The notes beneath the pieces are model-generated. The model had not been told where the DNA came from. It ran no database searches and was given only the letters and a program-made list of their open reading frames with translations. The translations under genes and the position numbers were made by a program. From a virus, in IMG/VR virus record IMGVR_UViG_3300042566_002057, positions 87,951 to 151,950 of that record: a DNA stretch of 64,000 bases; one strand, given 5' to 3'. Of this stretch, positions 7,483-47,149 are shown piece by piece. Each line of letters starts with the position of its first letter. The first letter of the stretch is position 1.

Positions 7483-9369
7483 ATGAGTAAAAAAGATGTA
7501 ATAATCGGAATTGACTTAGGAACAACAAACTCCTGTGTCGCAGTCGTAGAGGGCGGTGAGCCAATCGTAATCACAAATGCTGAAGGTAAAAGAACAACAC
7601 CATCTGTTGTAGGTTTTACCGACAAAGATCGAAAAATCGGAGATCCTGCTAAGCGTCAAGCAGTTACTAATCCAAAGAAAACAGTTTATTCAATTAAACG
7701 ATTCATTGGTAAAGATTTTTCAGTATGTAAAGATGAGGTAGGTAGAGTACCTTATGAAGTTACAAACGCTGGTGGTAATGTACCAGGTGTGAAAATTGAC
7801 GATCGTGTTTATACACCTCAAGAAGTTTCAGCAATGATTTTGCAAAAAATGAAAAAGACAGCAGAAGATTATCTTGGTCACGAAGTGAATAGAGCAGTAA
7901 TCACAGTACCAGCTTACTTCGGTGATGCTGAAAGAACTGCAACTATTGAAGCTGGTGAAATCGCTGGTCTTAAAGTTGAAAGAATTATCAATGAACCTAC
8001 AGCAGCCGCTTTAGCTTATGGTCTTGATAAGAAAAATACAGATGCTAAAATCTTAGTATTTGACTGTGGTGGTGGTACTCATGACGTATCTGTACTCGAA
8101 ATCGGTGACGGTGTATTTGAAGTAAAATCTACTGATGGTGATACTCACTTAGGTGGTGACGACTTTGATAACGCAATCATCAACTGGATGGTTGAAGAAT
8201 TTAAGAGTGAGCACAATATGGATTTATCAAAAGATCCTATGGCTTTACAACGTCTTAAAGAGGCGGCTGAAAAAGCTAAAATTGAACTTTCTTCAACATC
8301 ACAAAGTGAAATTAATCTTCCGTATATCACAGCTCAGGATGGAATGCCACTTCACTTTGTTAAACAATTGACTCGTTCTAAATTCGACCAAATGACAGCC
8401 AAATTGGTTGAAAGAACTATCGGTTGTGCTAAAAGTGCTCTTAAGTCAGCTGGACTTAAACCGTCTGAGATTGACGAAGTAATTCTTGTTGGTGGCTCAA
8501 CTCGTATTCCAGCAGTTCAAGAAGCACTTGAATCTTACATTGGAAAGAAACCAAACAAATCTGTTAATCCAGATGAAGTGGTTGCTTTAGGAGCGGCTAT
8601 TCAAGGAGCTGTTCTTACTGGAGGAATCACTGATGTTCTTCTTTTAGATGTAACTCCACTTTCATTGGGTATTGAAACTATGGGAAGTGTAATGACAAAA
8701 TTGATTGAAGCTAACACAACAATTCCGACCCGTAAGTCTGAAACGTTCTCTACAGCGGCTGACAATCAATCATCTGTAGAAATTCATGTTCTACAAGGTG
8801 AGCGTCCTATGGCAAAAGATAACCGTTCTTTGGGTCGTTTCCACTTAGATGGAATCATGCCAGCACCGAGAGGAATTCCTCAAATCGAAGTAACATTTGA
8901 TATTGATGCAAATGGAATTCTTTCTGTATCTGCAAAAGATAAGGCTTCTGGTAAAGAGAATACAATTCGTATTGAAGGTGGTTCTCAATTGACTAAAGAA
9001 GAAATCGAAAGAATGAAAGCAGAAGCTGAGGCAAATGCTGAAGCTGACAAACTTGAAAAAGAAAAAGTTGACAAACTGAATATGGCTGATAGTTTGATTT
9101 TCCAAACGGAAAAACAAATGAAAGAATTCGGTGAGAAGTTAACTGAAGAAGATAAGTCAGCAATTAATGTGGACTTAGACGCACTCAAAAAAGCTCACTC
9201 TGATAAAGATGTTGAATCTATTGAGGAAACTTCTAAAAAGTTGAATGAGACTTGGTCTACAATCTCAACCAGATTGTATCAAGAGTCTTCTCAACCAGAA
9301 CCAACAAATGAGGATAACTCTAATCCGAATGATGAGGTTCAAGACGCAGACTTTGAAGAAGTAAAGTAA
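7483..9369 (+). CDS. dnaK: Chaperone DnaK (Hsp70)
   Basis: [33 protein letters not shown]-terminal DADFEEVK. Confidence 0.98.
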
Positions 9370-9381
9370 TATCTACTTTTA

Positions 9382-9473
9382 GGTCGTAAGTCAGGAGAAG
9401 GAACGGAGCAGAAACCTCTTAGAAATAAGGTAAGGAAACGAAAGCAAAAGAGCCTGATGTTTTGACCCCGTTC
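9382..9473 (+). ncRNA. Candidate pseudoknotted structured RNA in the dnaK 3' region
   Basis: GGTC/GACC, TCAGG/CCTGA, GAAA-tetraloop hairpin, crossing GAACGG/CCGTTC. Confidence 0.3.
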
Positions 9474-9494
9474 AAGTTAAAGATATGAAAAACT

Positions 9495-9525
9495 AAAAAA
9501 CCCAGTCAATATTGACTGGGTTTTT
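9495..9525. terminator. Bidirectional terminator
   Basis: AAAAAACCCAGTCAAT/ATTGACTGGGTTTTT between convergent genes. Confidence 0.85.
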
Positions 9526-9528
9526 CTT

Positions 9529-10764
9529 TTATAGTGAGTCGTAGTCTCCGCATGTACTTCTACATTCTCTGTCTAATCCAGAGTAATCAGAATCGTTTGT
9601 AATAACATTTTCATCTAAATTTAAGTAACTCATAGTATCCATATAAGGATAGTAATCCCAATCAACATCATCAGCGTGTACAACAATTCGACCTAATTTT
9701 CTATTTGTTCCATCTGTAATCTGTTCCCATTGTTCCATAGATTGAGAAGTTTTATACCACCATCCATTTTTCTCAGCAAATTGCTTAAACAGTTCTACAT
9801 CAGAATCGTGTGTGGTGTAGATTCTATCCATAAATTTAATAGGACTTCCCTCAAACTCAGCATCCCATAGAATTGCTCTACCTCTAATTTTGTCTGAAAC
9901 ATATTTATCACCAGTGATTGTGCCATTTTCTGAATAAAGAATGACCATAGATACTTGTTTATTGTTACAATAAATGTCAAAGTAAGATGAATTGACACTT
10001 GCCATACAAGAATTATTAAGAGTACCACCACCACTTTGATAATTATCTTCATCATACCAATTTGAAATATCATCACCTTTAACAACATCAAATTGTTTAA
10101 GAGCATCTTTAGCAAAATCGTAAGTTGCTTTATATTGATTAGTAAAATCTTCGATATCTTTGTCAGTGAATGCCACATTAGCACTTCTAAGTAAAGCTCT
10201 CACAAGTCTACCAATTTTCATATTGTTTCTTGAAGTTGACCAAACAGCTTTTATTTCTGGATCATTTACTTCTAAACAACTTTTATTTAATACAGTTAGT
10301 CTTGGATTTTCAACATCATACTCTTGAAATAGTACAAAAGTTTTTCCAGAAACTGAACTTATTGTTTCAGATAAAATAGTACCAAATATTCCAATATCAG
10401 GTGCCCAATTTGGTCTACCTTCTTTATTATAACCAAGTGCTTCAAATATTTTATTATTTTTATCACTATGAGTTAGATACTTACCTGATTCAACAACCAT
10501 CCAAGTTTCTGGTTTACCAGCGTAAAGCTCTTGAGCTTTTCTATCTGGTGTAAAACTAACAGCATCTTTCTCATCCGTTATGTCAATAAAGTTATATTGT
10601 ACTGGATAATCCTTTGAGTTTATTTTAATTAGTTCTGATGAAATCTTGTTACTATTAAACTTATTAATTAAGTTTATAAACTTTGATGAGAATACTACTT
10701 TAGATTCAAGTAGTAAATCATATATTTGGTTTTCTAATAAAAATTCGTTATATCTATTAATCAT
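9529..10764 (-). CDS. Phage hypothetical protein with N-terminal capsid-targeting-like tag
   Basis: Starts MINRYNEFLLE; GTLNNSCM, GRAILW, FMDRIY and YPYMDT motifs. Confidence 0.8.
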   Translation of the reverse strand: MINRYNEFLLENQIYDLLLESKVVFSSKFINLINKFNSNKISSELIKINSKDYPVQYNFIDITDEKDAVSFTPDRKAQELYAGKPETWMVVESGKYLTHSDKNNKIFEALGYNKEGRPNWAPDIGIFGTILSETISSVSGKTFVLFQEYDVENPRLTVLNKSCLEVNDPEIKAVWSTSRNNMKIGRLVRALLRSANVAFTDKDIEDFTNQYKATYDFAKDALKQFDVVKGDDISNWYDEDNYQSGGGTLNNSCMASVNSSYFDIYCNNKQVSMVILYSENGTITGDKYVSDKIRGRAILWDAEFEGSPIKFMDRIYTTHDSDVELFKQFAEKNGWWYKTSQSMEQWEQITDGTNRKLGRIVVHADDVDWDYYPYMDTMSYLNLDENVITNDSDYSGLDRECRSTCGDYDSL

Positions 10765-15956: not shown

Positions 15957-16654
15957 TATTTTATTTTATAATATTTGAATGGTAAAGTTGATTCTTCCCA
16001 GGTTGGTTCAAGTTCTACAATATCATCAGGAGTCAACTGGTTATCAGCAATTGAAACTAAATGTGTTCCAGGTTTTAACTGACTAACGATATATTCAACA
16101 TCAGATTCATCAAAAAGTAAATCATTTACAAATACAAATGTTGCATCAGAAAAATCTATGTTTCTAATATCATCATTAATAAATTGTATATTATCATTAC
16201 TATTAACTTGATTTTGTATAAACTTTGAGTATAAATATCTGACTTTGTCTATTTCAACACCGACATATTTTCCAAAATTAGATATAAGTGATAAGTGTAA
16301 AACTATTTTACCATTACCTGATCCAATATCATAGAAAACCGATTTCTCATTTATATCAATTTTTGTTTTTATAAAATTGTAAAGAGAATCAACACCTACC
16401 TTTTTCAATTCACCATAAGTAGTTTTAAGGTCTTTTAGTTGTGAAATATAATCCCAAGCTTTTTCTGTCTCTAAATATTTTAGAGTTTCCTCTCTTTTTC
16501 TACCTTTAACTCTATTGTATTCATCAATTTCTTCTTGTGTCAGATATTGCCAGTAATCATAGTTATTTGCAATATCATCTATCTCAAATAAATTAAATGA
16601 GTAAAGACTTTTTATTAAGTCAAAATTCTGTATTCTTTTTATAAAATCATCCAT
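15956..16654 (-). CDS. Class I SAM-dependent methyltransferase, DOT1-like
   Basis: TYGEL, VFYDIGSGNGK, GVEID, ATFVFVND. Confidence 0.7.
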   Translation of the reverse strand: MDDFIKRIQNFDLIKSLYSFNLFEIDDIANNYDYWQYLTQEEIDEYNRVKGRKREETLKYLETEKAWDYISQLKDLKTTYGELKKVGVDSLYNFIKTKIDINEKSVFYDIGSGNGKIVLHLSLISNFGKYVGVEIDKVRYLYSKFIQNQVNSNDNIQFINDDIRNIDFSDATFVFVNDLLFDESDVEYIVSQLKPGTHLVSIADNQLTPDDIVELEPTWEESTLPFKYYKIK

Positions 16655-17060
16655 ATTGAATTACTTCTAATCCCGCACTTTCAAGAAAATCAATTCCTGA
16701 TGTGTCTTTATATTTTTCTATATAAACTAATCTTTTTATTCCAGATTGTAGAATCAATTTAGAACAATCTTTACAAGGTGAATGTGTTTGATATAAAGTA
16801 CCACCTTCACAAGAATGCCCGTGTTTAGCACATTTCAGAATAGCATTAGCCTCTCCATGAATAACATACCAGTTAGTATCACCATCTAAATTCTCACAAC
16901 AATTATCAAAACCAGTTGGTGTCCCATTATATCCATCAGATATAATCATACCATTTTTAACTATTAAGGCACCTACTTGTTTTCTTGTACAATGTGAAAG
17001 TTTAGACCACTCTGTAGCCATACTCAAATAAGTTCTATCATATCTTTCCTGTTTAGTCAT
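16647..17060 (-). CDS. dCMP deaminase
   Basis: GYNGTP, HGEANAI, PCKDC. Confidence 0.92.
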   Translation of the reverse strand: MTKQERYDRTYLSMATEWSKLSHCTRKQVGALIVKNGMIISDGYNGTPTGFDNCCENLDGDTNWYVIHGEANAILKCAKHGHSCEGGTLYQTHSPCKDCSKLILQSGIKRLVYIEKYKDTSGIDFLESAGLEVIQYG

Positions 17061-17253
17061 TGAATATTTTTTTAATTTTTCTTTGTCTTAAAAGAGGTTT
17101 ACTCAGTCTCTGTAGATCCTTAATCAATTCTCTATCAATACTTTTAGCCAATTCTTCAGATAGAATTTTAGTAAGTTCTGACTCTATGTCTGTTCCGTAT
17201 GGACTAATACTATTGTCCTGTACTTCAATACCTTTAACTTTATACTTTTTCAC
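17053..17253 (-). CDS. Mini-protein: gp23-like major capsid fragment plus C-terminal tag
   Basis: QD...GTDIESELTKILSEELAKSIDRELIKDL then LRQRKIKKIFND. Confidence 0.6.
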   Translation of the reverse strand: MKKYKVKGIEVQDNSISPYGTDIESELTKILSEELAKSIDRELIKDLQRLSKPLLRQRKIKKIFND

Positions 17254-17428
17254 CGAATAATCTATTAACTTTTTCTTTTCTAAAATTGACCTTTTGTTTA
17301 TTATAAACTTCCTGTATCATATCACCAACTGATGGTGATGTAACTACATAATTTGCACTTCCTCTTAAAGATGATTTATGAATAGTTTCTGATACTTTTA
17401 ATAATTTATCAATTAAGTCTTTACTCAT
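17240..17428 (-). CDS. Mini-protein: gp23-like major capsid fragment plus C-terminal tag
   Basis: LIDKLLKVSETIHKSSLRGSANYVVTSPSV then FRKEKVNRLFG. Confidence 0.6.
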   Translation of the reverse strand: MSKDLIDKLLKVSETIHKSSLRGSANYVVTSPSVGDMIQEVYNKQKVNFRKEKVNRLFGEKV

Positions 17429-18192
17429 ATTATATTTTTAACATTCCAATTTTCCGGTAAATACTTAGCCTTAGTATTTTCAATAAAATGAAGTCTCCAC
17501 ATCTCAATAAATTGTTGAATATTTTCTAAATTTTCTACTACAATCTGACCGTGACTTTTATTAATTTTCTTAGACCTCATAGTTGATATTCTTTCAAGTC
17601 TGGATTTAGTAAGATGTTTGTAATTGAAATATTCTCTTAATGTCTTTTTCATCATAACTACTCTTTCTTTAGGTATTTTTGATAAATCCTTATTGAGAAG
17701 AGTTGTTGAGATTTTAGCCAATTTAATCAACTCACTATTGTATTCGTACTCTCCAGTTATTGGAGCATAATAATCAATCGAAAGTTTTTGTTTAAGTTCA
17801 TCAGCTTTTCTTTCATAAGTGTCGTGACAATCAACACACATAAGAAGTACATCATGAAAATTATGAGACTTTAGTTTTAGTGGAAACCACTTTCTATAAC
17901 AAGTAGGTATTACGTGGTGTCTAGTAAGATAATTTTCAGTATTACAAACAACACAATGATTTTTCATCTGTGAAAGTCCAAAGTTTCTTTCGTGATTACC
18001 TAAACCATTAGGTCTGAAATTTAGTCTTATTGTGTTTTCATCAATATAGTTGGCTAAGTTTCTTTTAATATACCAGTTGATGCGTTTTTCATCACATCGA
18101 AACATCAATATACCATCAGGTGATTCAACTTGATAGTTACCATACACCCTTCTGTTTTGACCAACACCGAATGATTTTACCAGTCTACTCAA
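17425..18192 (-). CDS. HNH-type nuclease resembling the C-terminal domain of eukaryotic EXD2
   Basis: PDG..CD...WY, CVVC..RHHVIP..YRKWFP..HDVLLMCVDCH, WRLHF..YLPENW. Confidence 0.7.
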   Translation of the reverse strand: MSRLVKSFGVGQNRRVYGNYQVESPDGILMFRCDEKRINWYIKRNLANYIDENTIRLNFRPNGLGNHERNFGLSQMKNHCVVCNTENYLTRHHVIPTCYRKWFPLKLKSHNFHDVLLMCVDCHDTYERKADELKQKLSIDYYAPITGEYEYNSELIKLAKISTTLLNKDLSKIPKERVVMMKKTLREYFNYKHLTKSRLERISTMRSKKINKSHGQIVVENLENIQQFIEMWRLHFIENTKAKYLPENWNVKNII

Positions 18193-18201
18193 TGTAAATG
18201 A

Positions 18202-18750
18202 TTACATTTTGTCAATTTGCATCATATCCAATTCTACAGGAGTTTTACGTCCAAAAATTGATACTGAAACTTTAACTTTTTGACCACTGATAGATTCAAT
18301 TGTTCCTACCATAGAAGAGAAAGGTCCATCCATAATTTTAACTTCCTCGTTAACAACAAAAGGATTTTCTAATTCAACTTCTTCTGCCTCTGCTTGTTGT
18401 CCAATCATTTTATTAACTTCGTTTAGTGATAAAGGTTTAATCTCACCTGATTTGTTTGTAAGAAATCCGGTAGCGCCGTTACATCCTTTAAGGAAGTATT
18501 TTAATTCACCGATTGCTGATGTCTCAACAAATATGTATCCTGGGTAAAGAACTTTTTCTCTTTTTACTTTTTTTCCACCTTTCACATAGAAAGATTTCTC
18601 CATCGGTACAAGAACTTGAGAAACTTTTCCGATAAGTTCACCTTTTTCTACTTCTTTAAGAATTTTTTCGGTTACACTTCTTTCGCGGTTAGATTGAGTT
18701 CTTACTACGTACCAATTTGTTTTTGTTGATTTTTCTAAAATTTGTTCCAT
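18202..18750 (-). CDS. nusG: Transcription termination/antitermination factor NusG
   Basis: WYVVRT, YPGYIFVE, KOW DGPF, SIFGRKTPVEL. Confidence 0.93.
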   Translation of the reverse strand: MEQILEKSTKTNWYVVRTQSNRERSVTEKILKEVEKGELIGKVSQVLVPMEKSFYVKGGKKVKREKVLYPGYIFVETSAIGELKYFLKGCNGATGFLTNKSGEIKPLSLNEVNKMIGQQAEAEEVELENPFVVNEEVKIMDGPFSSMVGTIESISGQKVKVSVSIFGRKTPVELDMMQIDKM

Positions 18751-18780: not shown

Positions 18781-19170
18781 TTATTGTTTATCAAGTTGTT
18801 TATAATACTTTAGCTCTTCTTTTATAAAATCAGGAAAATTATTTACTAAGTAAGTAATATCCGAGTCTTTTAATTTAAGTCTTAGCATTAAAAGTTTGAA
18901 ATCCTTTTCAGGTATTTCTGGTTTATCAGTAGGTGACTTTGACCAAAACCACTGAGGATAAGGTTTGCCTTTCATAAAATAAAACCACAAATCCATTCCA
19001 TCTGATTTATTTGTGGTCTTCATATTAAGTAAATGACTTTTCTCTGGATATTTTTTACTAAAATATCGATTGAATATAAAAAACAACTTTTCTTTATCAT
19101 CATCAGTAATTTTTTCCCAATCACTTCTATTTCTAAACATCGCATTTGCGACATCAATTAATTCCGCCAT
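18781..19170 (-). CDS. Hypothetical protein (weak resemblance to T4 clamp-loader small subunit)
   Basis: 129-aa ORF coupled to the exonuclease gene; FFIFNRYFS motif only suggestive. Confidence 0.5.
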   Translation of the reverse strand: MAELIDVANAMFRNRSDWEKITDDDKEKLFFIFNRYFSKKYPEKSHLLNMKTTNKSDGMDLWFYFMKGKPYPQWFWSKSPTDKPEIPEKDFKLLMLRLKLKDSDITYLVNNFPDFIKEELKYYKQLDKQ

Positions 19171-20128
19171 AAACTGTTTTCATTTTACTAACAATATCTT
19201 CAGGAAGATTGTCAATTCTTAAGTCAATTAACTTAACATTGTCTTGTATATTCTCAACTATAGATTCTATTTGTGTTTTACTTAACTTTTTCTTTTCACA
19301 AATTAAATCAGCAATGTTTTCATAAAGATCTGGATCAAGTAAATTAACTTCACCAAATTCAGAAAGATAATTGTCATAGATTGACTTAGCTCCTTTAGCT
19401 CCTATACCTCTTTTCTTACCATTCTTTACTTGAGACCAAACTGAAGATATGTTATCACTCTGATCACCTGATATGATTTTAATTACTAAAGATTCCATAG
19501 AATCAATTTCATTTACATCATACTTAGTTAAAAATCTATTTAGAAGTAAAAGAAATTCACTATTATCATTTAGATTAAAGATATCATCATTTGGTAAAGT
19601 AGATACTTTGTCCACAAATATTTGATAGTTCTTTGGTAAGAATAGTTTCTCTTTATTATACATTTCATTAGTCATTATGTTAATGAATAATGGTTCTAAT
19701 CCATAAGATACAATCTGTTTGATATCGTAATCATTTGATACGATAATTGCAGAACGACCTTCTTCATTTGATTTATCACAAAGAAAAGATATCCAGTCAT
19801 CTCCTTCGATAGTTGGAGCTTCAAGGACTTTTATTGTAGATTTCATTGATTGCTTAAACTCATCGTAAGCAGTGTAAACAAAAGACCAATCAATATCGTT
19901 ATCTTTCTTTCTGTTACTTTTATAAGTTTTTGTTAATTGTTTTCTCCAAGACTTTTCTTTAGAGTCTGATACTAAATATACATTTGCAAAAGGATACCAT
20001 TTTCTATAATTTGATACCGTATTTTCTAATGATTTATGTAGAGCACCGTAGAGTAAATTATTTTTATGAAGTGTAAAAACTAATCTACTCAAAATATAGT
20101 TTCCGTCGATTATTAAATCACATAACAT
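19154..20128 (-). CDS. T4 RNase H-like 5'-3' exonuclease (FEN/PIN fold)
   Basis: LIIDGN, YKSNR, EGDD, SNDYDIKQ, GDQSDNI. Confidence 0.85.
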   Translation of the reverse strand: MLCDLIIDGNYILSRLVFTLHKNNLLYGALHKSLENTVSNYRKWYPFANVYLVSDSKEKSWRKQLTKTYKSNRKKDNDIDWSFVYTAYDEFKQSMKSTIKVLEAPTIEGDDWISFLCDKSNEEGRSAIIVSNDYDIKQIVSYGLEPLFINIMTNEMYNKEKLFLPKNYQIFVDKVSTLPNDDIFNLNDNSEFLLLLNRFLTKYDVNEIDSMESLVIKIISGDQSDNISSVWSQVKNGKKRGIGAKGAKSIYDNYLSEFGEVNLLDPDLYENIADLICEKKKLSKTQIESIVENIQDNVKLIDLRIDNLPEDIVSKMKTVYGGIN

Positions 20129-42434: not shown

Positions 42435-42481
42435 ACTGATTATCTCATTGATATTAAAATAAATTTCCTTACCTTTGTAAA

Positions 42482-42910
42482 ATGAGTAAGTTACTAATAT
42501 ACACTGATGGTAGTTCAAGAGGCAATCCTGGTCCAGGTGGATGGGGAGTTGTCATGAAGTTTAATGATAAAACTAAAGAACTATCTGGTGGTGAAAAGTT
42601 TACTACTAATAATAGAATGGAACTAATGGCTGTTATACAAGCGTTAGAAGCCGTTAAAACCACCAAGCATCCAGTTGAGGTTTACTCAGACTCTAAATAT
42701 GTAATTGATTCTGTTGAGAAAGGTTGGGTATTTAATTGGGTCAAGAAAACAGACTTTGGTGGTAAAAAGAATGAAGACCTTTGGAGAAGATTCTTAAAGT
42801 CTTACAATAACTTTAACATAACCTTTCATTGGGTTAAAGGACATAACGGACATCCAGAGAATGAAAGATGTGATCACTTAGCAACAACTGAAGCAATTAA
42901 ATTTTTATAA
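42482..42910 (+). CDS. rnhA: Ribonuclease HI
   Basis: YTDGSSRGNPGPGGWG, TNNRMEL, DSKY, WVKGH.G..NERCD. Confidence 0.95.
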   Translation: MSKLLIYTDGSSRGNPGPGGWGVVMKFNDKTKELSGGEKFTTNNRMELMAVIQALEAVKTTKHPVEVYSDSKYVIDSVEKGWVFNWVKKTDFGGKKNEDLWRRFLKSYNNFNITFHWVKGHNGHPENERCDHLATTEAIKFL

Positions 42911-42911
42911 T

Positions 42912-43160
42912 ATGGCAACAGAATACACCGGAAATAAGAGTAGTTTAGATACGGGTTATGTTTTTGCTCCTTATATACCAATGACAACATCAGCGAACAT
43001 AGTTGAATATGGTTCTAAGAAAATAAGTAGAAAAAGAAAGATTAATAAGATATTTGATTTAGGATTAAGTATCGATGATGAATTCTCAAGAACTATGAGT
43101 AAATACTCAAAAAAAACTATAATTGCTAATTACTACAAAACAATAAAAATTACACAATGA
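42912..43160 (+). CDS. Mini-protein: gp23-like C-terminal capsid fragment with internal tag
   Basis: GNKSSLDTGYVFAPYIPM...RKRKINKIFD...MSKYSKK..NYYKTIKI. Confidence 0.6.
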   Translation: MATEYTGNKSSLDTGYVFAPYIPMTTSANIVEYGSKKISRKRKINKIFDLGLSIDDEFSRTMSKYSKKTIIANYYKTIKITQ

Positions 43161-44953
43161 CAAATATCAAATTAATAAAAAGTATATTAGATTTCTCTAA
43201 ACCATTTAGAACAGAATTACTTCTGGTCTTTTTATGTGTTTTTCTAACTTCAGCGATTGAGGCAGTAACAACATACTTACTTGGTGAGATTTTTAATATC
43301 GCGCAAAAACATTCAACAGAACAAAGTTATTTAGAACCAGCAATTTATCTTGTTGTTTTTGCACTTGTAACTTATCTTATTAAGACATTTATTGTTACTT
43401 ACCAACAAAGACTTGAAGTGCGTAAGTTAGATGTCGCTGTTGCAAATCACTTAAATCATGCTTCAATTTCAAGATACTTTAAGTTCTCGAACGGTCAACA
43501 TATAAATGAACACTCTGGTGTTAAACAAAATATCATCACAACCGGATTTACATCAGTTCAGAATCAAATGAATATGTTTATCTACCAGTTCTTTCCGTCA
43601 CTATCAAACTTTATTGTTTCATTAGTTGTACTTTTCTCTATTAGTCTTACAATAGGTTTTACTTACTTAGGAGTAACTATTTTATTTATCTACTCAATGT
43701 ACTACTTCAATAAAATGATGCAACCTAAAATTCGTGAGGTTCGAGATGCTAGAAATGAGACTTCAAGAACTATTAGTGAACTTTATCGTTATGTTTTTTT
43801 AATTAAGAATGAAGTAGCTGAAAAGAAATCAATTGATGATTTAGATAATGTACAAAGTTTACACCAAAAGTCTTATTCATCTGCTTGGATAGTAGGTATT
43901 AATTGGTTAACTGCAATTAAAATAGGTACATCTTTATTTAGATACTTAACAATTGGAATTGGAGTTTATTTATTATTCTCTGGTCAGATTACTGCAGGTA
44001 GTATCTTCTTAATATTTACTTGGTCGAATCATTTTATAAACTCTCTTTGGATGATTACTGATATGCAAAAACAGTTTATCACTGACAAGATTAACATTGA
44101 AAAGTATTTTGAGATTTTACAAATTGAACCAGATGTAAAAGAGGTTGAACAACCAATTGAAAATGATTTTGCTGGTGATATTGAATTTAATAATGTTAAA
44201 TTTAAGTATCCTGGTAGAAAAAGTTCACACGACTCTGACGAAGTAACTGAGAATGACTGGGTATTAAAAGGAGTTACATTTAATATTAAACAGGGTCAGA
44301 AAGTTGCTTTTGTTGGTGAGTCTGGTTCTGGAAAATCCACAATCGCTAATTTAGTAAGAAGAGCATTTGATCCACAAGAAGGTGAAATCAAAATTAACAA
44401 TCACCTTCTTAAAGAAATATCACTTTCACACTTTTTACAAAAGATTGGATCTGTGGACCAAGAAGTAATTCTGTTCGATAAAAGTTTAAGAGAAAACATT
44501 TCTTTTGGTACTAATAGACTTCTGACAGATGAAGAACTTAATAAGATTGCAAAATTAAGTAGAATAGATTCTTTCTATCCTAAGTTAGAACACGGTTGGG
44601 ACACGATTGTTGGTGAGAAAGGTTCTAAGATATCAGGTGGTGAAAAACAAAGAATTGGTATTGCTAGAGCTTTGGCTAAGAATCCAGAAATTCTTATCTT
44701 TGACGAAGCAACTTCTGCTTTAGACACGGTGTCTGAAAAAGTAGTTCAAAGATCGATTGATGTTTCTTGTAAAGGAAAGACATCTATTATAATTGCACAT
44801 CGTCTTTCGACTGTTAAAAACTGTGATAAGATATTTGTTCTTAGAAACGGTGAAATAATTGGAGAAGGAACACACCAGGAATTACTGGAGAGCTGTGAAT
44901 ATTATGCAGATTTGATTAAGAATCAATTATCACATAAATTAGAAAAAGTATAA
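43157..44953 (+). CDS. ABC exporter, fused permease-ATPase (MsbA-like)
   Basis: N-terminal TM helices; GESGSGKS, ISGGEKQR, DEATSALD. Confidence 0.93.
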   Translation: MTNIKLIKSILDFSKPFRTELLLVFLCVFLTSAIEAVTTYLLGEIFNIAQKHSTEQSYLEPAIYLVVFALVTYLIKTFIVTYQQRLEVRKLDVAVANHLNHASISRYFKFSNGQHINEHSGVKQNIITTGFTSVQNQMNMFIYQFFPSLSNFIVSLVVLFSISLTIGFTYLGVTILFIYSMYYFNKMMQPKIREVRDARNETSRTISELYRYVFLIKNEVAEKKSIDDLDNVQSLHQKSYSSAWIVGINWLTAIKIGTSLFRYLTIGIGVYLLFSGQITAGSIFLIFTWSNHFINSLWMITDMQKQFITDKINIEKYFEILQIEPDVKEVEQPIENDFAGDIEFNNVKFKYPGRKSSHDSDEVTENDWVLKGVTFNIKQGQKVAFVGESGSGKSTIANLVRRAFDPQEGEIKINNHLLKEISLSHFLQKIGSVDQEVILFDKSLRENISFGTNRLLTDEELNKIAKLSRIDSFYPKLEHGWDTIVGEKGSKISGGEKQRIGIARALAKNPEILIFDEATSALDTVSEKVVQRSIDVSCKGKTSIIIAHRLSTVKNCDKIFVLRNGEIIGEGTHQELLESCEYYADLIKNQLSHKLEKV

Positions 44954-45376: not shown

Positions 45377-47149
45377 ATGCAAGAAAACCAAAATACCGAG
45401 GAATTAAAAGAACCAGTTGTTGGAAACTTTAAACCTAAAAGAAAATTCTTAAACTTTGTTTCAGCTGTAAACGGAGCGCGTATTCGATTCATACGAGACG
45501 TGGCTTTTCTAAAAGGTGAAAAACTATCTGGGTTCTTAGAAAATGTCATCTTCAAAATCACTATTTGTGAAGAAGGAACTATTAAGTTTGAGGAACAAGA
45601 TGGAACTAATCTTTCTGACGAGAATATGATTAATCGTTTAATCGATGAAATTGATGCGATGGAAGTGACTGGATACGCTCAAAAGTTTGTTGTTAGTGGT
45701 TTAGAGTTTGCTGATGTCAATGGTGACCGATGTTATCTTGAAGTTGAACATCAAAAACCAATCGATAAATTAAAATCTATTTTTGATGATGAAGAAAAGG
45801 TAGAGATTTCTGAAAAAAGTTTGAGTTTAATTGATGATTTATTTGGATCTTCTGATGATGAGTTTGATGAAGATCACGCACTATCTGAGGTGTTAAATAA
45901 TATGGTGATGGAACTTTCGGAAGAAGATGCTAAAACTCTTGTAGAAACAATTGAAAATCCACCAGCTCCTAACGAAAAACTTAAAGAAGCGGCTGAGTCA
46001 TATATGGAAAAACAATTCCGTAAAATGAATGAGGAAAAGGTTATGGAATTGGAGTACCGTATTGAAGAAACTCAGAAAGAAATCATTCGTTATAAAAGTG
46101 ATGTAAAAATGGCTCAGAAAAAGATGGATGAAAAATCAGAGTCTCTAAAAGTACTTGAAAGTAGATTAGAAAGTATGAAACCAGGTGACGAACCAAACGG
46201 ATATGTGTTCTATGTTTCAGAAGAGATTAAAGATATGGAAGGTCTGGATGAAACAGAAGCAAAAGTTGCGGCTAAGATTGCAGACATTATGAAATTAAAA
46301 ATTGATGTCTTAACTGAAATGTTGACTGGTGGTTACTACAAAATCAAAATTGCTAAGAAAGATGATATCACTAATCAAGAGTTTGAGTTAGAAAAAGAAG
46401 TCTATCAAAAAATTGCATCTTTGGATGTAGAAGGTAAACTTTCTATTGTTGATGGTGAGTTTCAGTATCGTGGTAAAATGACTTGGCATCAAATCGTTGG
46501 TAAAATGATTCGTATGGGATTTGAACAAGAACCAGAGTTTGATAAATTGTGTCAGTCTAATTCTTATGACTCTCACGAAGAAGATAAGTCAACTGAAATG
46601 GATCTAGGTAATGGTATGGTTGACTCTGTATCTGAAACTTCAGTTTCTACAAAGCCAACTTCAACAGAGATTAAATCCAAAACTCTTAAAACCTTCAGTG
46701 AAGAAACTACATTAGTAGTTATGGGTACAATTGACCACGATGATAACCGTGATGTTGAGATTACTGATGATTTTACTGGATTTGGAGTGTGTGTTGGTGA
46801 TAAAATGATGAAATCATCTTATGAGTCTGATGGATTTATCTCAATTATGACTTTACCAGAGTTTAAGATGTGGCAATCACAATACCCAGATGCTATGACT
46901 GATGGTGGTGGAATAGGTTCATTTTTACTACCTAACTTCAAGGGAACTATTGGTGTAACTGCTATGATTGATGATGAATTCACAGCTGACTTTGATTTAA
47001 GTGATTTCATTCAACATCAATATGGAATGGAAGAGGCTGAAGTGTTTTTAACATTACCAGAAGGAACTGAGATTGTGAAAATGGGTGATTATCACCAAGT
47101 TCCAGTTGCAGCAATGAGAGATATCAAAATTGATAAAATTATTGAATAA
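45377..47149 (+). CDS. Large acidic coiled-coil protein with C-terminal tag
   Basis: 590 aa; ends MRDIKIDKIIE; TATCTTTG at 45356-45363. Confidence 0.8.
   Translation: MQENQNTEELKEPVVGNFKPKRKFLNFVSAVNGARIRFIRDVAFLKGEKLSGFLENVIFKITICEEGTIKFEEQDGTNLSDENMINRLIDEIDAMEVTGYAQKFVVSGLEFADVNGDRCYLEVEHQKPIDKLKSIFDDEEKVEISEKSLSLIDDLFGSSDDEFDEDHALSEVLNNMVMELSEEDAKTLVETIENPPAPNEKLKEAAESYMEKQFRKMNEEKVMELEYRIEETQKEIIRYKSDVKMAQKKMDEKSESLKVLESRLESMKPGDEPNGYVFYVSEEIKDMEGLDETEAKVAAKIADIMKLKIDVLTEMLTGGYYKIKIAKKDDITNQEFELEKEVYQKIASLDVEGKLSIVDGEFQYRGKMTWHQIVGKMIRMGFEQEPEFDKLCQSNSYDSHEEDKSTEMDLGNGMVDSVSETSVSTKPTSTEIKSKTLKTFSEETTLVVMGTIDHDDNRDVEITDDFTGFGVCVGDKMMKSSYESDGFISIMTLPEFKMWQSQYPDAMTDGGGIGSFLLPNFKGTIGVTAMIDDEFTADFDLSDFIQHQYGMEEAEVFLTLPEGTEIVKMGDYHQVPVAAMRDIKIDKIIE

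Follow-up and report, generated by a model that had tools for sequence, protein, structure and literature searches.

Why does a phage carry a gene for an 82-residue protein that reads like the end of a major capsid protein (MCP) with a short basic motif set into its middle? The gene lies in the window, the 64-kb stretch of DNA analyzed here, which forms the end of a 151,950-bp IMG/VR virus record (30.5% G+C, estimated to be 68% complete). Among deposited phages, the sole DNA relatives of this record are distant, uncultured phages of 634 to 642 kb, and the carrier lineage consists of huge, low-GC phages that probably infect Bacteroidota. IMG/VR labels the record and its relatives G001 to G003 (G000 to G003, 152 to 476 kb) as "provirus" although they resemble free huge-phage genomes, possibly an artifact of classification.

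The mini-gene (42912..43160, plus strand, stop codon included, from the ORF listing) starts with ATG and encodes the peptide segments quoted in the initial annotation. It begins 1 nt after the stop codon of an RNase H gene, rnhA (42482..42910, plus strand; Pfam RNase_H, E = 5e-40), and its TGA overlaps the start codon of an ABC exporter gene (43157..44953, plus strand) in the sequence ATGA. The exporter gene encodes a membrane domain and an ATPase (Pfam ABC_tran, E = 6e-32; ABC_membrane, E = 3.5e-11; PHROG 2392, E = 2e-130), that is, a full half-transporter, which is translationally coupled to the mini-gene here; this linkage is not kept in relatives, among which neither the RNase H nor the ABC neighbor is conserved.

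The gene had been described as lying behind rnhA and a host-type promoter motif, and this is what we found: TACCTTTG, which resembles a Bacteroidota-type -7 box, was located by pattern search at 42470..42477 (plus strand), 4 nt before the rnhA start (42482), and is likely the start of an rnhA/mini-gene/ABC transcription unit. Over the whole window the pattern TAnnTTTG is not enriched (116 occurrences versus 100.6 ± 10.7 expected). In the whole record (G000, the window plus 88 kb upstream), it is enriched about 10-fold at 0 to 4 nt and at 15 to 19 nt before start codons, with 9 start codons in the first class and 8 others in the second, where 0.9 per bin was expected. This enrichment makes a role as a putative promoter plausible and suggests that Bacteroidota-type promoters give rise to many transcripts in this record that have no leader or almost none.

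The two flanks and their origin in gp23

The capsid origin of the protein was visible only at the level of the family. The window's own 82-residue protein had no direct Pfam match at E ≤ 1, a PHROG scan of it returned nothing usable, and tblastn against cultured phage genomes gave a best E of about 8, the top match carrying a major-capsid-protein annotation. The family of the protein comprises 156 clusters at 90% identity, with members of 80 to 100 amino acids that are 60 to 90% identical and are encoded on contigs of up to 522 kb; the reading frame is open throughout the family (more than 150 clusters). An alignment of 25 members (A1) has 23 invariant positions. Its profile, compared with 1.84e9 proteins, gave 271 matches at E ≤ 1e-3, which puts the extent of the family at 271 clusters at 50% identity. 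These comparisons support a real, conserved, stand-alone gene.

A word-based search for longer relatives found none, but the exhaustive profile search did recover them. Eight of the 271 matches are MCP-sized (314 to 577 amino acids) and were matched at their C-termini (E = 2.5e-7 to 3e-5). All eight are Pfam Gp23 proteins (E = 1e-47 to 1e-78), and all eight align in two stretches (profile positions of about 4 to 32 and 57 to 86) with the tag skipped. When A1 was aligned by hhalign to eight gp23 MCPs including T4 gp23, the match covered 65 columns with a probability of 98.9% (E = 1.1e-17) and spanned residues 432 to 520 of T4 gp23, the N-flank corresponding approximately to residues 432 to 462 and the C-flank to residues 463 to 520. 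Pfam Gp23 also matches orthologues directly, at profile positions 300 to 376 (E = 2.6e-5) and 314 to 376 (E = 3e-3). A PDB sequence search with the family profile returned no match.

Between the two flanks, residues 33 to 54 form a clean insertion relative to the MCP profile, seen as a 21-column gap in hhalign, and a MAFFT alignment with about 30 MCP C-termini gave the same picture, with a gap in every MCP. The initial annotation had proposed that both flanks are capsid-derived and that the tag occupies the loop joining them, and had named profile alignment to gp23 C-termini as the way to check this. Both parts are borne out, the flanks aligning to gp23 far better than chance.

The protein can accordingly be divided into three parts. 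The N-flank (residues 3 to 32; 42918..43007, plus strand) contains the G-Y-V-x-A-P-Y-I strand of gp23-type MCPs and the outgoing strand of the next hairpin, and keeps Y16, V17, P20, and I22 invariant in A1. The 22-residue insert (residues 33 to 54; 43008..43073, plus strand) carries the tag core, a predicted basic amphipathic helix of the R-x-x-K-I-x-x-I-F type (residues 40 to 48; 43029..43055, plus strand), delimited by AF2 modeling, pattern match, and conservation. The C-flank (residues 55 to 82; 43074..43157, plus strand) contains the returning hairpin strand (the D-F-x-P...T-R-Y block of MCPs) and the last strand of the capsid protein, with F58, S63, Y65, S66, and Y75 invariant. In terms of HK97/gp23 topology, we take the copied stretch to be an A-domain strand, the P-domain hairpin, and the final strand, with the insert presumably at the tip of the P-domain hairpin. 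This placement rests on the known topology because the AF2 model of a full-length MCP of the standard type, made from a 7-row alignment, was too poor for use (pLDDT 45).

The alignments show a stand-alone, conserved micro-protein that joins what are, by homology, the final β-elements of a gp23-type (HK97-fold) MCP to a predicted basic helix. It is nevertheless not a capsid protein in the usual sense. Its flanks are homologous to residues 432 to 520 of T4 gp23 and it keeps the residues of this stretch that are invariant in gp23-type proteins (PF07068, the HK97-fold family of gp23 and the vertex protein gp24), but it represents only the last 60 or so of about 500 residues, interrupted by the 22-residue basic helix. 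The match to PF07068 is partial (the last 65 columns), and a complete HK97-type subunit has an N-arm, an E-loop, and P- and A-domains within about 370 to 630 amino acids, whereas the mini-protein has 82. AF2 gave the mini-protein a pLDDT of 50 and a pTM of 0.12, with just two short helices, the first of which is the tag (residues 40 to 47), and the mini-protein alone is predicted to be unfolded. With coverage of profile positions of about 300 to 376 only and no predicted fold, it should not be filed as a capsid protein and cannot serve as a subunit of the shell. Related genomes also encode a normal capsid protein.

The tag and its place in the module

The tag is a common feature of this phage. 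Of the 220 ORFs of the 152-kb record, 21 match the pattern R..[KRNS][ILV]..[ILV][ILFV] in their final 16 residues, compared with 0.26 expected from shuffled sequences (an enrichment of about 80-fold). Internal matches number 6 in 44,646 residues, and the mini-gene provides one of them; its tag has the motif but lies 34 residues from the C-terminus, outside the terminal 16 or so residues in which the others are found. Those of the tagged proteins that were scanned matched no known family. One of the tagged proteins in the window has 590 residues (45377..47149, plus strand) and combines a TacA1-like antitoxin segment (E = 1.8e-6) and coiled-coil-like matches with a C-terminal tag.

Within the mini-protein family, the tag is the best-conserved part. 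Its core has nine residues, of which five (R40, K41, R42, I44, and F48) are invariant in A1 and two (K46 and I47) nearly so; L50 and L52 just after the core are invariant too. The proposal that the tag can dispense with a free C-terminus holds in this family, in which the core is largely invariant in an internal position, and for the same reason a docking motif is a better fit than a degron acting at the terminus. In the window, the three capsid-fragment genes (the mini-gene and fragments 1 and 2, described below) have tags of a subtype of their own, basic and ending in F. The mini-gene and fragment 1 share 7 of 9 tag residues and 22 of 27 nucleotides, and among all three genes the tag DNA is identical at 19 to 22 of 27 nucleotides, which argues for a common origin and against independent fusions.

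Two other origins of the tag were considered but not adopted. A copy of the scaffold-binding motif at the capsid N-terminus (of the A-Q-L-L-E-N-Q type) is a weak lead: of 29 MCPs searched with a PSSM of the tag, only 3, that of T4 among them, had this site as their best match, with scores of 1 to 2 bits. A by-product of an overlapping TAnnTTTG promoter can be dismissed, as the motif is absent from the tag DNA. The capsid propeptide motif itself (basic residues followed by h-x-x-h-h-E-N-Q) has a tag-like spacing and is found at residues 29 to 41 of T4 gp23 (L097, 4946..6508) and at the N-termini of about 30 gp23-type proteins.

Short peptide addresses are known from other systems, among them encapsulin cargo-loading peptides and the MinD-type C-terminal membrane helix. 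The capsid-targeting sequence of the internal proteins of T4 is also a short peptide address (PMC9958956). The tag resembles these in being a motif of 9 to 12 residues that is found on about 10% of the phage's proteins and nearly always at the C-terminus, but it has no sequence relation to any of them and is internal in the mini-protein family.

Natural variants of the mini-protein indicate how the internal position arose. Among the best 150 of the 271 profile matches, for which we classified the architecture, at least nine are circular permutants in which profile positions 54 to 88 begin at residue 2 or 3 and are followed by positions 4 to 49; the order is the C-flank (returning hairpin and last strand), the N-flank, and then the tag, now at the C-terminus. 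Two permutants that were checked on their contigs are complete internal genes within runs of micro-ORFs. Three proteins have the architecture of the mini-protein plus a second, C-terminal tag, and in the 143-residue protein P0151 a fragment-2-plus-tag unit is fused to the mini-protein module. Some stand-alone relatives lack the insert. In P0158, P0144, and P0137, collagen-like linkers rich in Gly-Pro or Gly-Ser join the capsid module to either a second tag or a long basic tail. Newly described here are the circular permutants, the proteins with two tags, and the fusion between fragment 2 and the mini-protein.

The existence of circular permutants argues that the two halves taken from the capsid work together as a single unit whose ends are close in space, as would be expected if their pairing were that of the capsid fold. 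Whether internal or terminal, the tag always comes after the sequence assigned to the outgoing hairpin strand. Read at the sequence level, these genes are built from shuffled units of a capsid piece and a putative helix, and such shuffling accounts for the internal tag more readily than a separate insertion would. The earlier suggestion that fragment-plus-tag genes arose repeatedly should be revised: the permutants, the double-tag forms, and the P0151 fusion are better read as the shuffling of modular units than as repeated origins.

A set of capsid pieces beside a normal capsid gene

Two further tagged capsid fragments are encoded in the window, on the minus strand. The fragment-1 gene (17053..17253; 66 amino acids) encodes a piece of the capsid spine helix with a C-terminal tag and matches Gp23 positions 166 to 199 (24.9 bits with a cut-off of 24.4; E = 1.6e-5). 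The fragment-2 gene (17240..17428; 62 amino acids) encodes a strand-helix piece of the A-domain, also with a C-terminal tag, and matches positions 222 to 260 (E = 1.3e-3). The pair (17053..17428) lies 25.5 kb from the mini-gene. The distance of 25 kb noted in the initial annotation is correct for this genome but is not a general trait, as the fragment-1 gene lies 0 to 0.8 kb upstream of the mini-gene in three relatives (directly upstream of the orthologue in L003/L009 and L012, and 0.8 kb upstream in L008); no fragment-1 gene lies within 10 kb of the mini-gene in eight other relatives.

Near the fragment-1 and fragment-2 genes, and likewise on the minus strand, are genes for a dCMP deaminase (16647..17060, E = 6e-23), a phage NusG homologue (18202..18750, E = 2e-17), and a 5'-3' exonuclease (19154..20128, E = 1e-15), and with these neighbors fragments 1 and 2 also lie among genes of nucleic acid metabolism and not among head genes. 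Directly upstream of the pair is a 255-residue ORF (17425..18192, minus strand) with a Cys/His pattern and a weak HNH_2 match (Pfam E = 0.022). A homing endonuclease beside capsid fragments, if this ORF is one, could bear on how the pieces were acquired.

The mini-genes are not the remains of a broken capsid gene. A full-length gp23, a T4-type portal, and a prohead protease were not found on this 68%-complete record. Three relatives that are 95 to 97% complete (385 to 476 kb) each have one normal gp23 gene of 560 to 590 codons and, in addition, 3 to 6 small ORFs that match pieces of Gp23 (positions 26 to 51, 126 to 185, 155 to 194, 220 to 260, and 300 to 376). The presence of the full gene together with 3 to 6 fragment genes in the same genomes identifies the mini-genes as extras, and shows that the mini-protein belongs to a set of capsid-piece-plus-tag genes that are carried besides a normal capsid gene. 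In annotation, the partial Gp23 matches of such mini-genes could pass for broken capsid genes.

The near-complete relatives also have a truncated Gp23 paralogue of 258 to 265 amino acids (profile positions 184 to 305). Such a paralogue, of 258 amino acids, is encoded in L091 (1378..2154, minus strand; Pfam Gp23 184 to 305, E = 4e-6). In L021 (about 9365..10177, plus strand), a truncated paralogue of 271 amino acids has an unrelated N-terminal part followed by an untagged copy of both flanks of the mini-protein. A split gene, in which the fragments would tile one capsid protein, was ruled out: the fragments overlap, and the 258-residue paralogue has C-terminal strands of its own.

Selection on the mini-gene was estimated from three genome pairs. 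Its dN/dS is 0.38 to 0.51, compared with 0.24 to 0.33 for the whole MCP and 0.07 to 0.13 for the MCP C-terminus in the same pairs, which indicates that the mini-gene is constrained, but less so than the capsid region that it copies.

Which capsid protein do the pieces resemble? We compared the window's three fragments and the fragment families of the near-complete genomes G002, G003, and G004 with 40 gp23-type proteins. For every fragment family, the resident full-length MCP of G002 to G004 ranked 19th to 40th of 40, while the top ranks went to ordinary gp23 proteins of 480 to 630 amino acids, such as those of L021, L041, L079, and L028; the comparison set had been selected through a C-terminal motif, a source of bias in the ranking of the mini-protein family and, to a lesser degree, in those of fragments 1, 2, and A. 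The flanks of the mini-protein are 40 to 46% identical to ordinary gp23 proteins versus 23 to 30% to the resident type. This "foreign" resemblance holds for the MCPs of relatives, the window's own record (68% complete) being without an MCP. Alternatively, the resident MCP may be fast evolving, with the fragments keeping the ancestral sequence. In five records with the ordinary MCP type (one complete and four incomplete), the profile matched inside capsid or paralogue genes only, and there was no tagged mini-gene.

What the capsid pieces may do

What would a phage gain from pieces of a capsid protein that it already encodes in full? The mini-protein has no predicted fold of its own yet keeps almost every residue of this region that is invariant in real capsid proteins, which makes mimicry its most likely mode of action. 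We hypothesize that its strands would be offered to the surface against which they are normally packed in a gp23-type protein, in a folding or assembly intermediate, and that the helix would dock the resulting complex to a shared partner, either a protein hub or a membrane. In this way, the mini-protein would poison head formation in competing T4-like phages in a dominant-negative manner, an effect from which the phage's own, diverged capsid protein would escape. As the fragments resemble ordinary T4-type MCPs more than the resident MCP, the likeliest target would be a foreign gp23 of the standard type.

That the mini-protein mimics a hairpin of the capsid protein and interferes with the head assembly of competing T4-like phages is a reading that we put forward tentatively. 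The copied strands are elements of the fold core and not obvious subunit interfaces, and the dN/dS of the mini-gene is well above that of the MCP C-terminus (0.07 to 0.13), both of which speak against interference. We are equally cautious about its broader form, in which the genes would be a modular library of micro-proteins, each made of a core piece of a T4-type head protein and a docking helix, that jams either the assembly of rivals or capsid-sensing immunity. A complex prediction for fragment 1, fragment 2, and the mini-protein (score of 0.03) gave no evidence for or against an interaction.

Eukaryotic microProteins and engineered dominant-negative fragments offer a precedent, as small proteins made from one interaction element of a larger protein. 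The mini-protein resembles them in being a small stand-alone piece of a multimerizing protein of which the rest is missing. It differs in that the phage pieces are strands of the fold core with a helix tag in common, and the likeness in binding is part of our working model. To our knowledge, no microProtein-like class has been described for phage capsid proteins; likewise, we know of no phage-encoded decoy made from a capsid fragment, and our literature search found no published description of capsid-fragment genes or decoys.

A decoy of this kind is nonetheless worth weighing. The capsid pieces would copy the most conserved epitopes of T4-type capsids and would occupy, or precede the capsid at, host sensors of the CapRel, Lit/Gol, or TIR type, with the tag supplying a blocking or docking function. 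Capsid proteins are proven triggers of bacterial immunity, and short stretches or surfaces of them are read by host proteins (CapRel and TIR, PMC9712102 and PMC11312562; Gol/Lit, PMC3014915), although it is the real capsid protein that is sensed in these systems, and Gol lies in another part of gp23. The mini-genes suit such a function in being small, scattered, and variable in position between genomes, and this one stands behind a promoter-like motif of the host type together with genes of DNA metabolism. However, a faithful copy of a trigger should activate the sensor and not silence it, and the greater similarity of the fragments to the foreign type than to the resident MCP is the wrong way round for shielding the phage's own capsid. 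The family also evolves no faster than the capsid gene, unlike most counter-defense genes, and a portal or protease fragment was not found in this record. We therefore regard an immune decoy as unlikely.

About as improbable, in our judgment, is a role in the phage's own head, in which the pieces would co-assemble with each other, with the 258-residue paralogue, or with the resident MCP, as a split capsid paralogue or as a scaffold, vertex, or size-determining component of a very large head. The fragment families of the relatives jointly cover Gp23 positions 26 to 51 and 126 to 376, fragments are found fused or adjacent to each other, the permutants show the pieces to be parts of a single structural unit, and in some relatives the gene lies beside large fiber-like structural genes. 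Moreover, the near-complete relatives have only one full-length gene of the gp23 family, which leaves them with no obvious vertex paralogue of the gp24 type. Yet the fragments overlap and do not tile, fragment A and fragment 1 both containing the spine helix and fragment 2 falling within the range of the 258-residue paralogue, which has C-terminal strands of its own, and the mini-genes are unlinked to the capsid gene. T4 gp67 and gp68 are likewise small and take part in head assembly in a gp23-type phage, and the C-terminus of gp68 is basic, but the mini-protein shows no similarity to these prohead core proteins (hhalign probability of 0.1 to 0.2%) and its neighbors are rnhA and the ABC exporter gene, not head genes.

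Finally, the mini-genes could be functionless debris of a foreign capsid gene, left by recombination or by a homing endonuclease and open by chance. The weak HNH-like ORF beside fragments 1 and 2, the variable positions of the mini-genes, and a dN/dS that is not very low would fit. We consider this highly improbable for a frame that has stayed open across more than 150 clusters, from contigs as long as 522 kb, and in which 23 residues, those of the tag among them, are invariant; permuted, double-tagged, and fused variants all retain the same elements, and the mini-gene is tightly coupled in translation on both sides.

The mimicry of capsid proteins is the reading that we prefer, and the family lends itself to its study: the natural permutants and double-tag forms are ready-made structure-function variants, and the proteins are short enough to be synthesized. 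If mimicry is the true function, these genes would provide the first natural example in which a virus employs peptide-sized copies of capsid-fold elements as tools, and the tag, found on about one-tenth of the phage's proteins, would define an addressing or docking system in huge phages. If the pieces form a library against rivals or immunity, they would represent a new class of phage weapon made from capsid parts.
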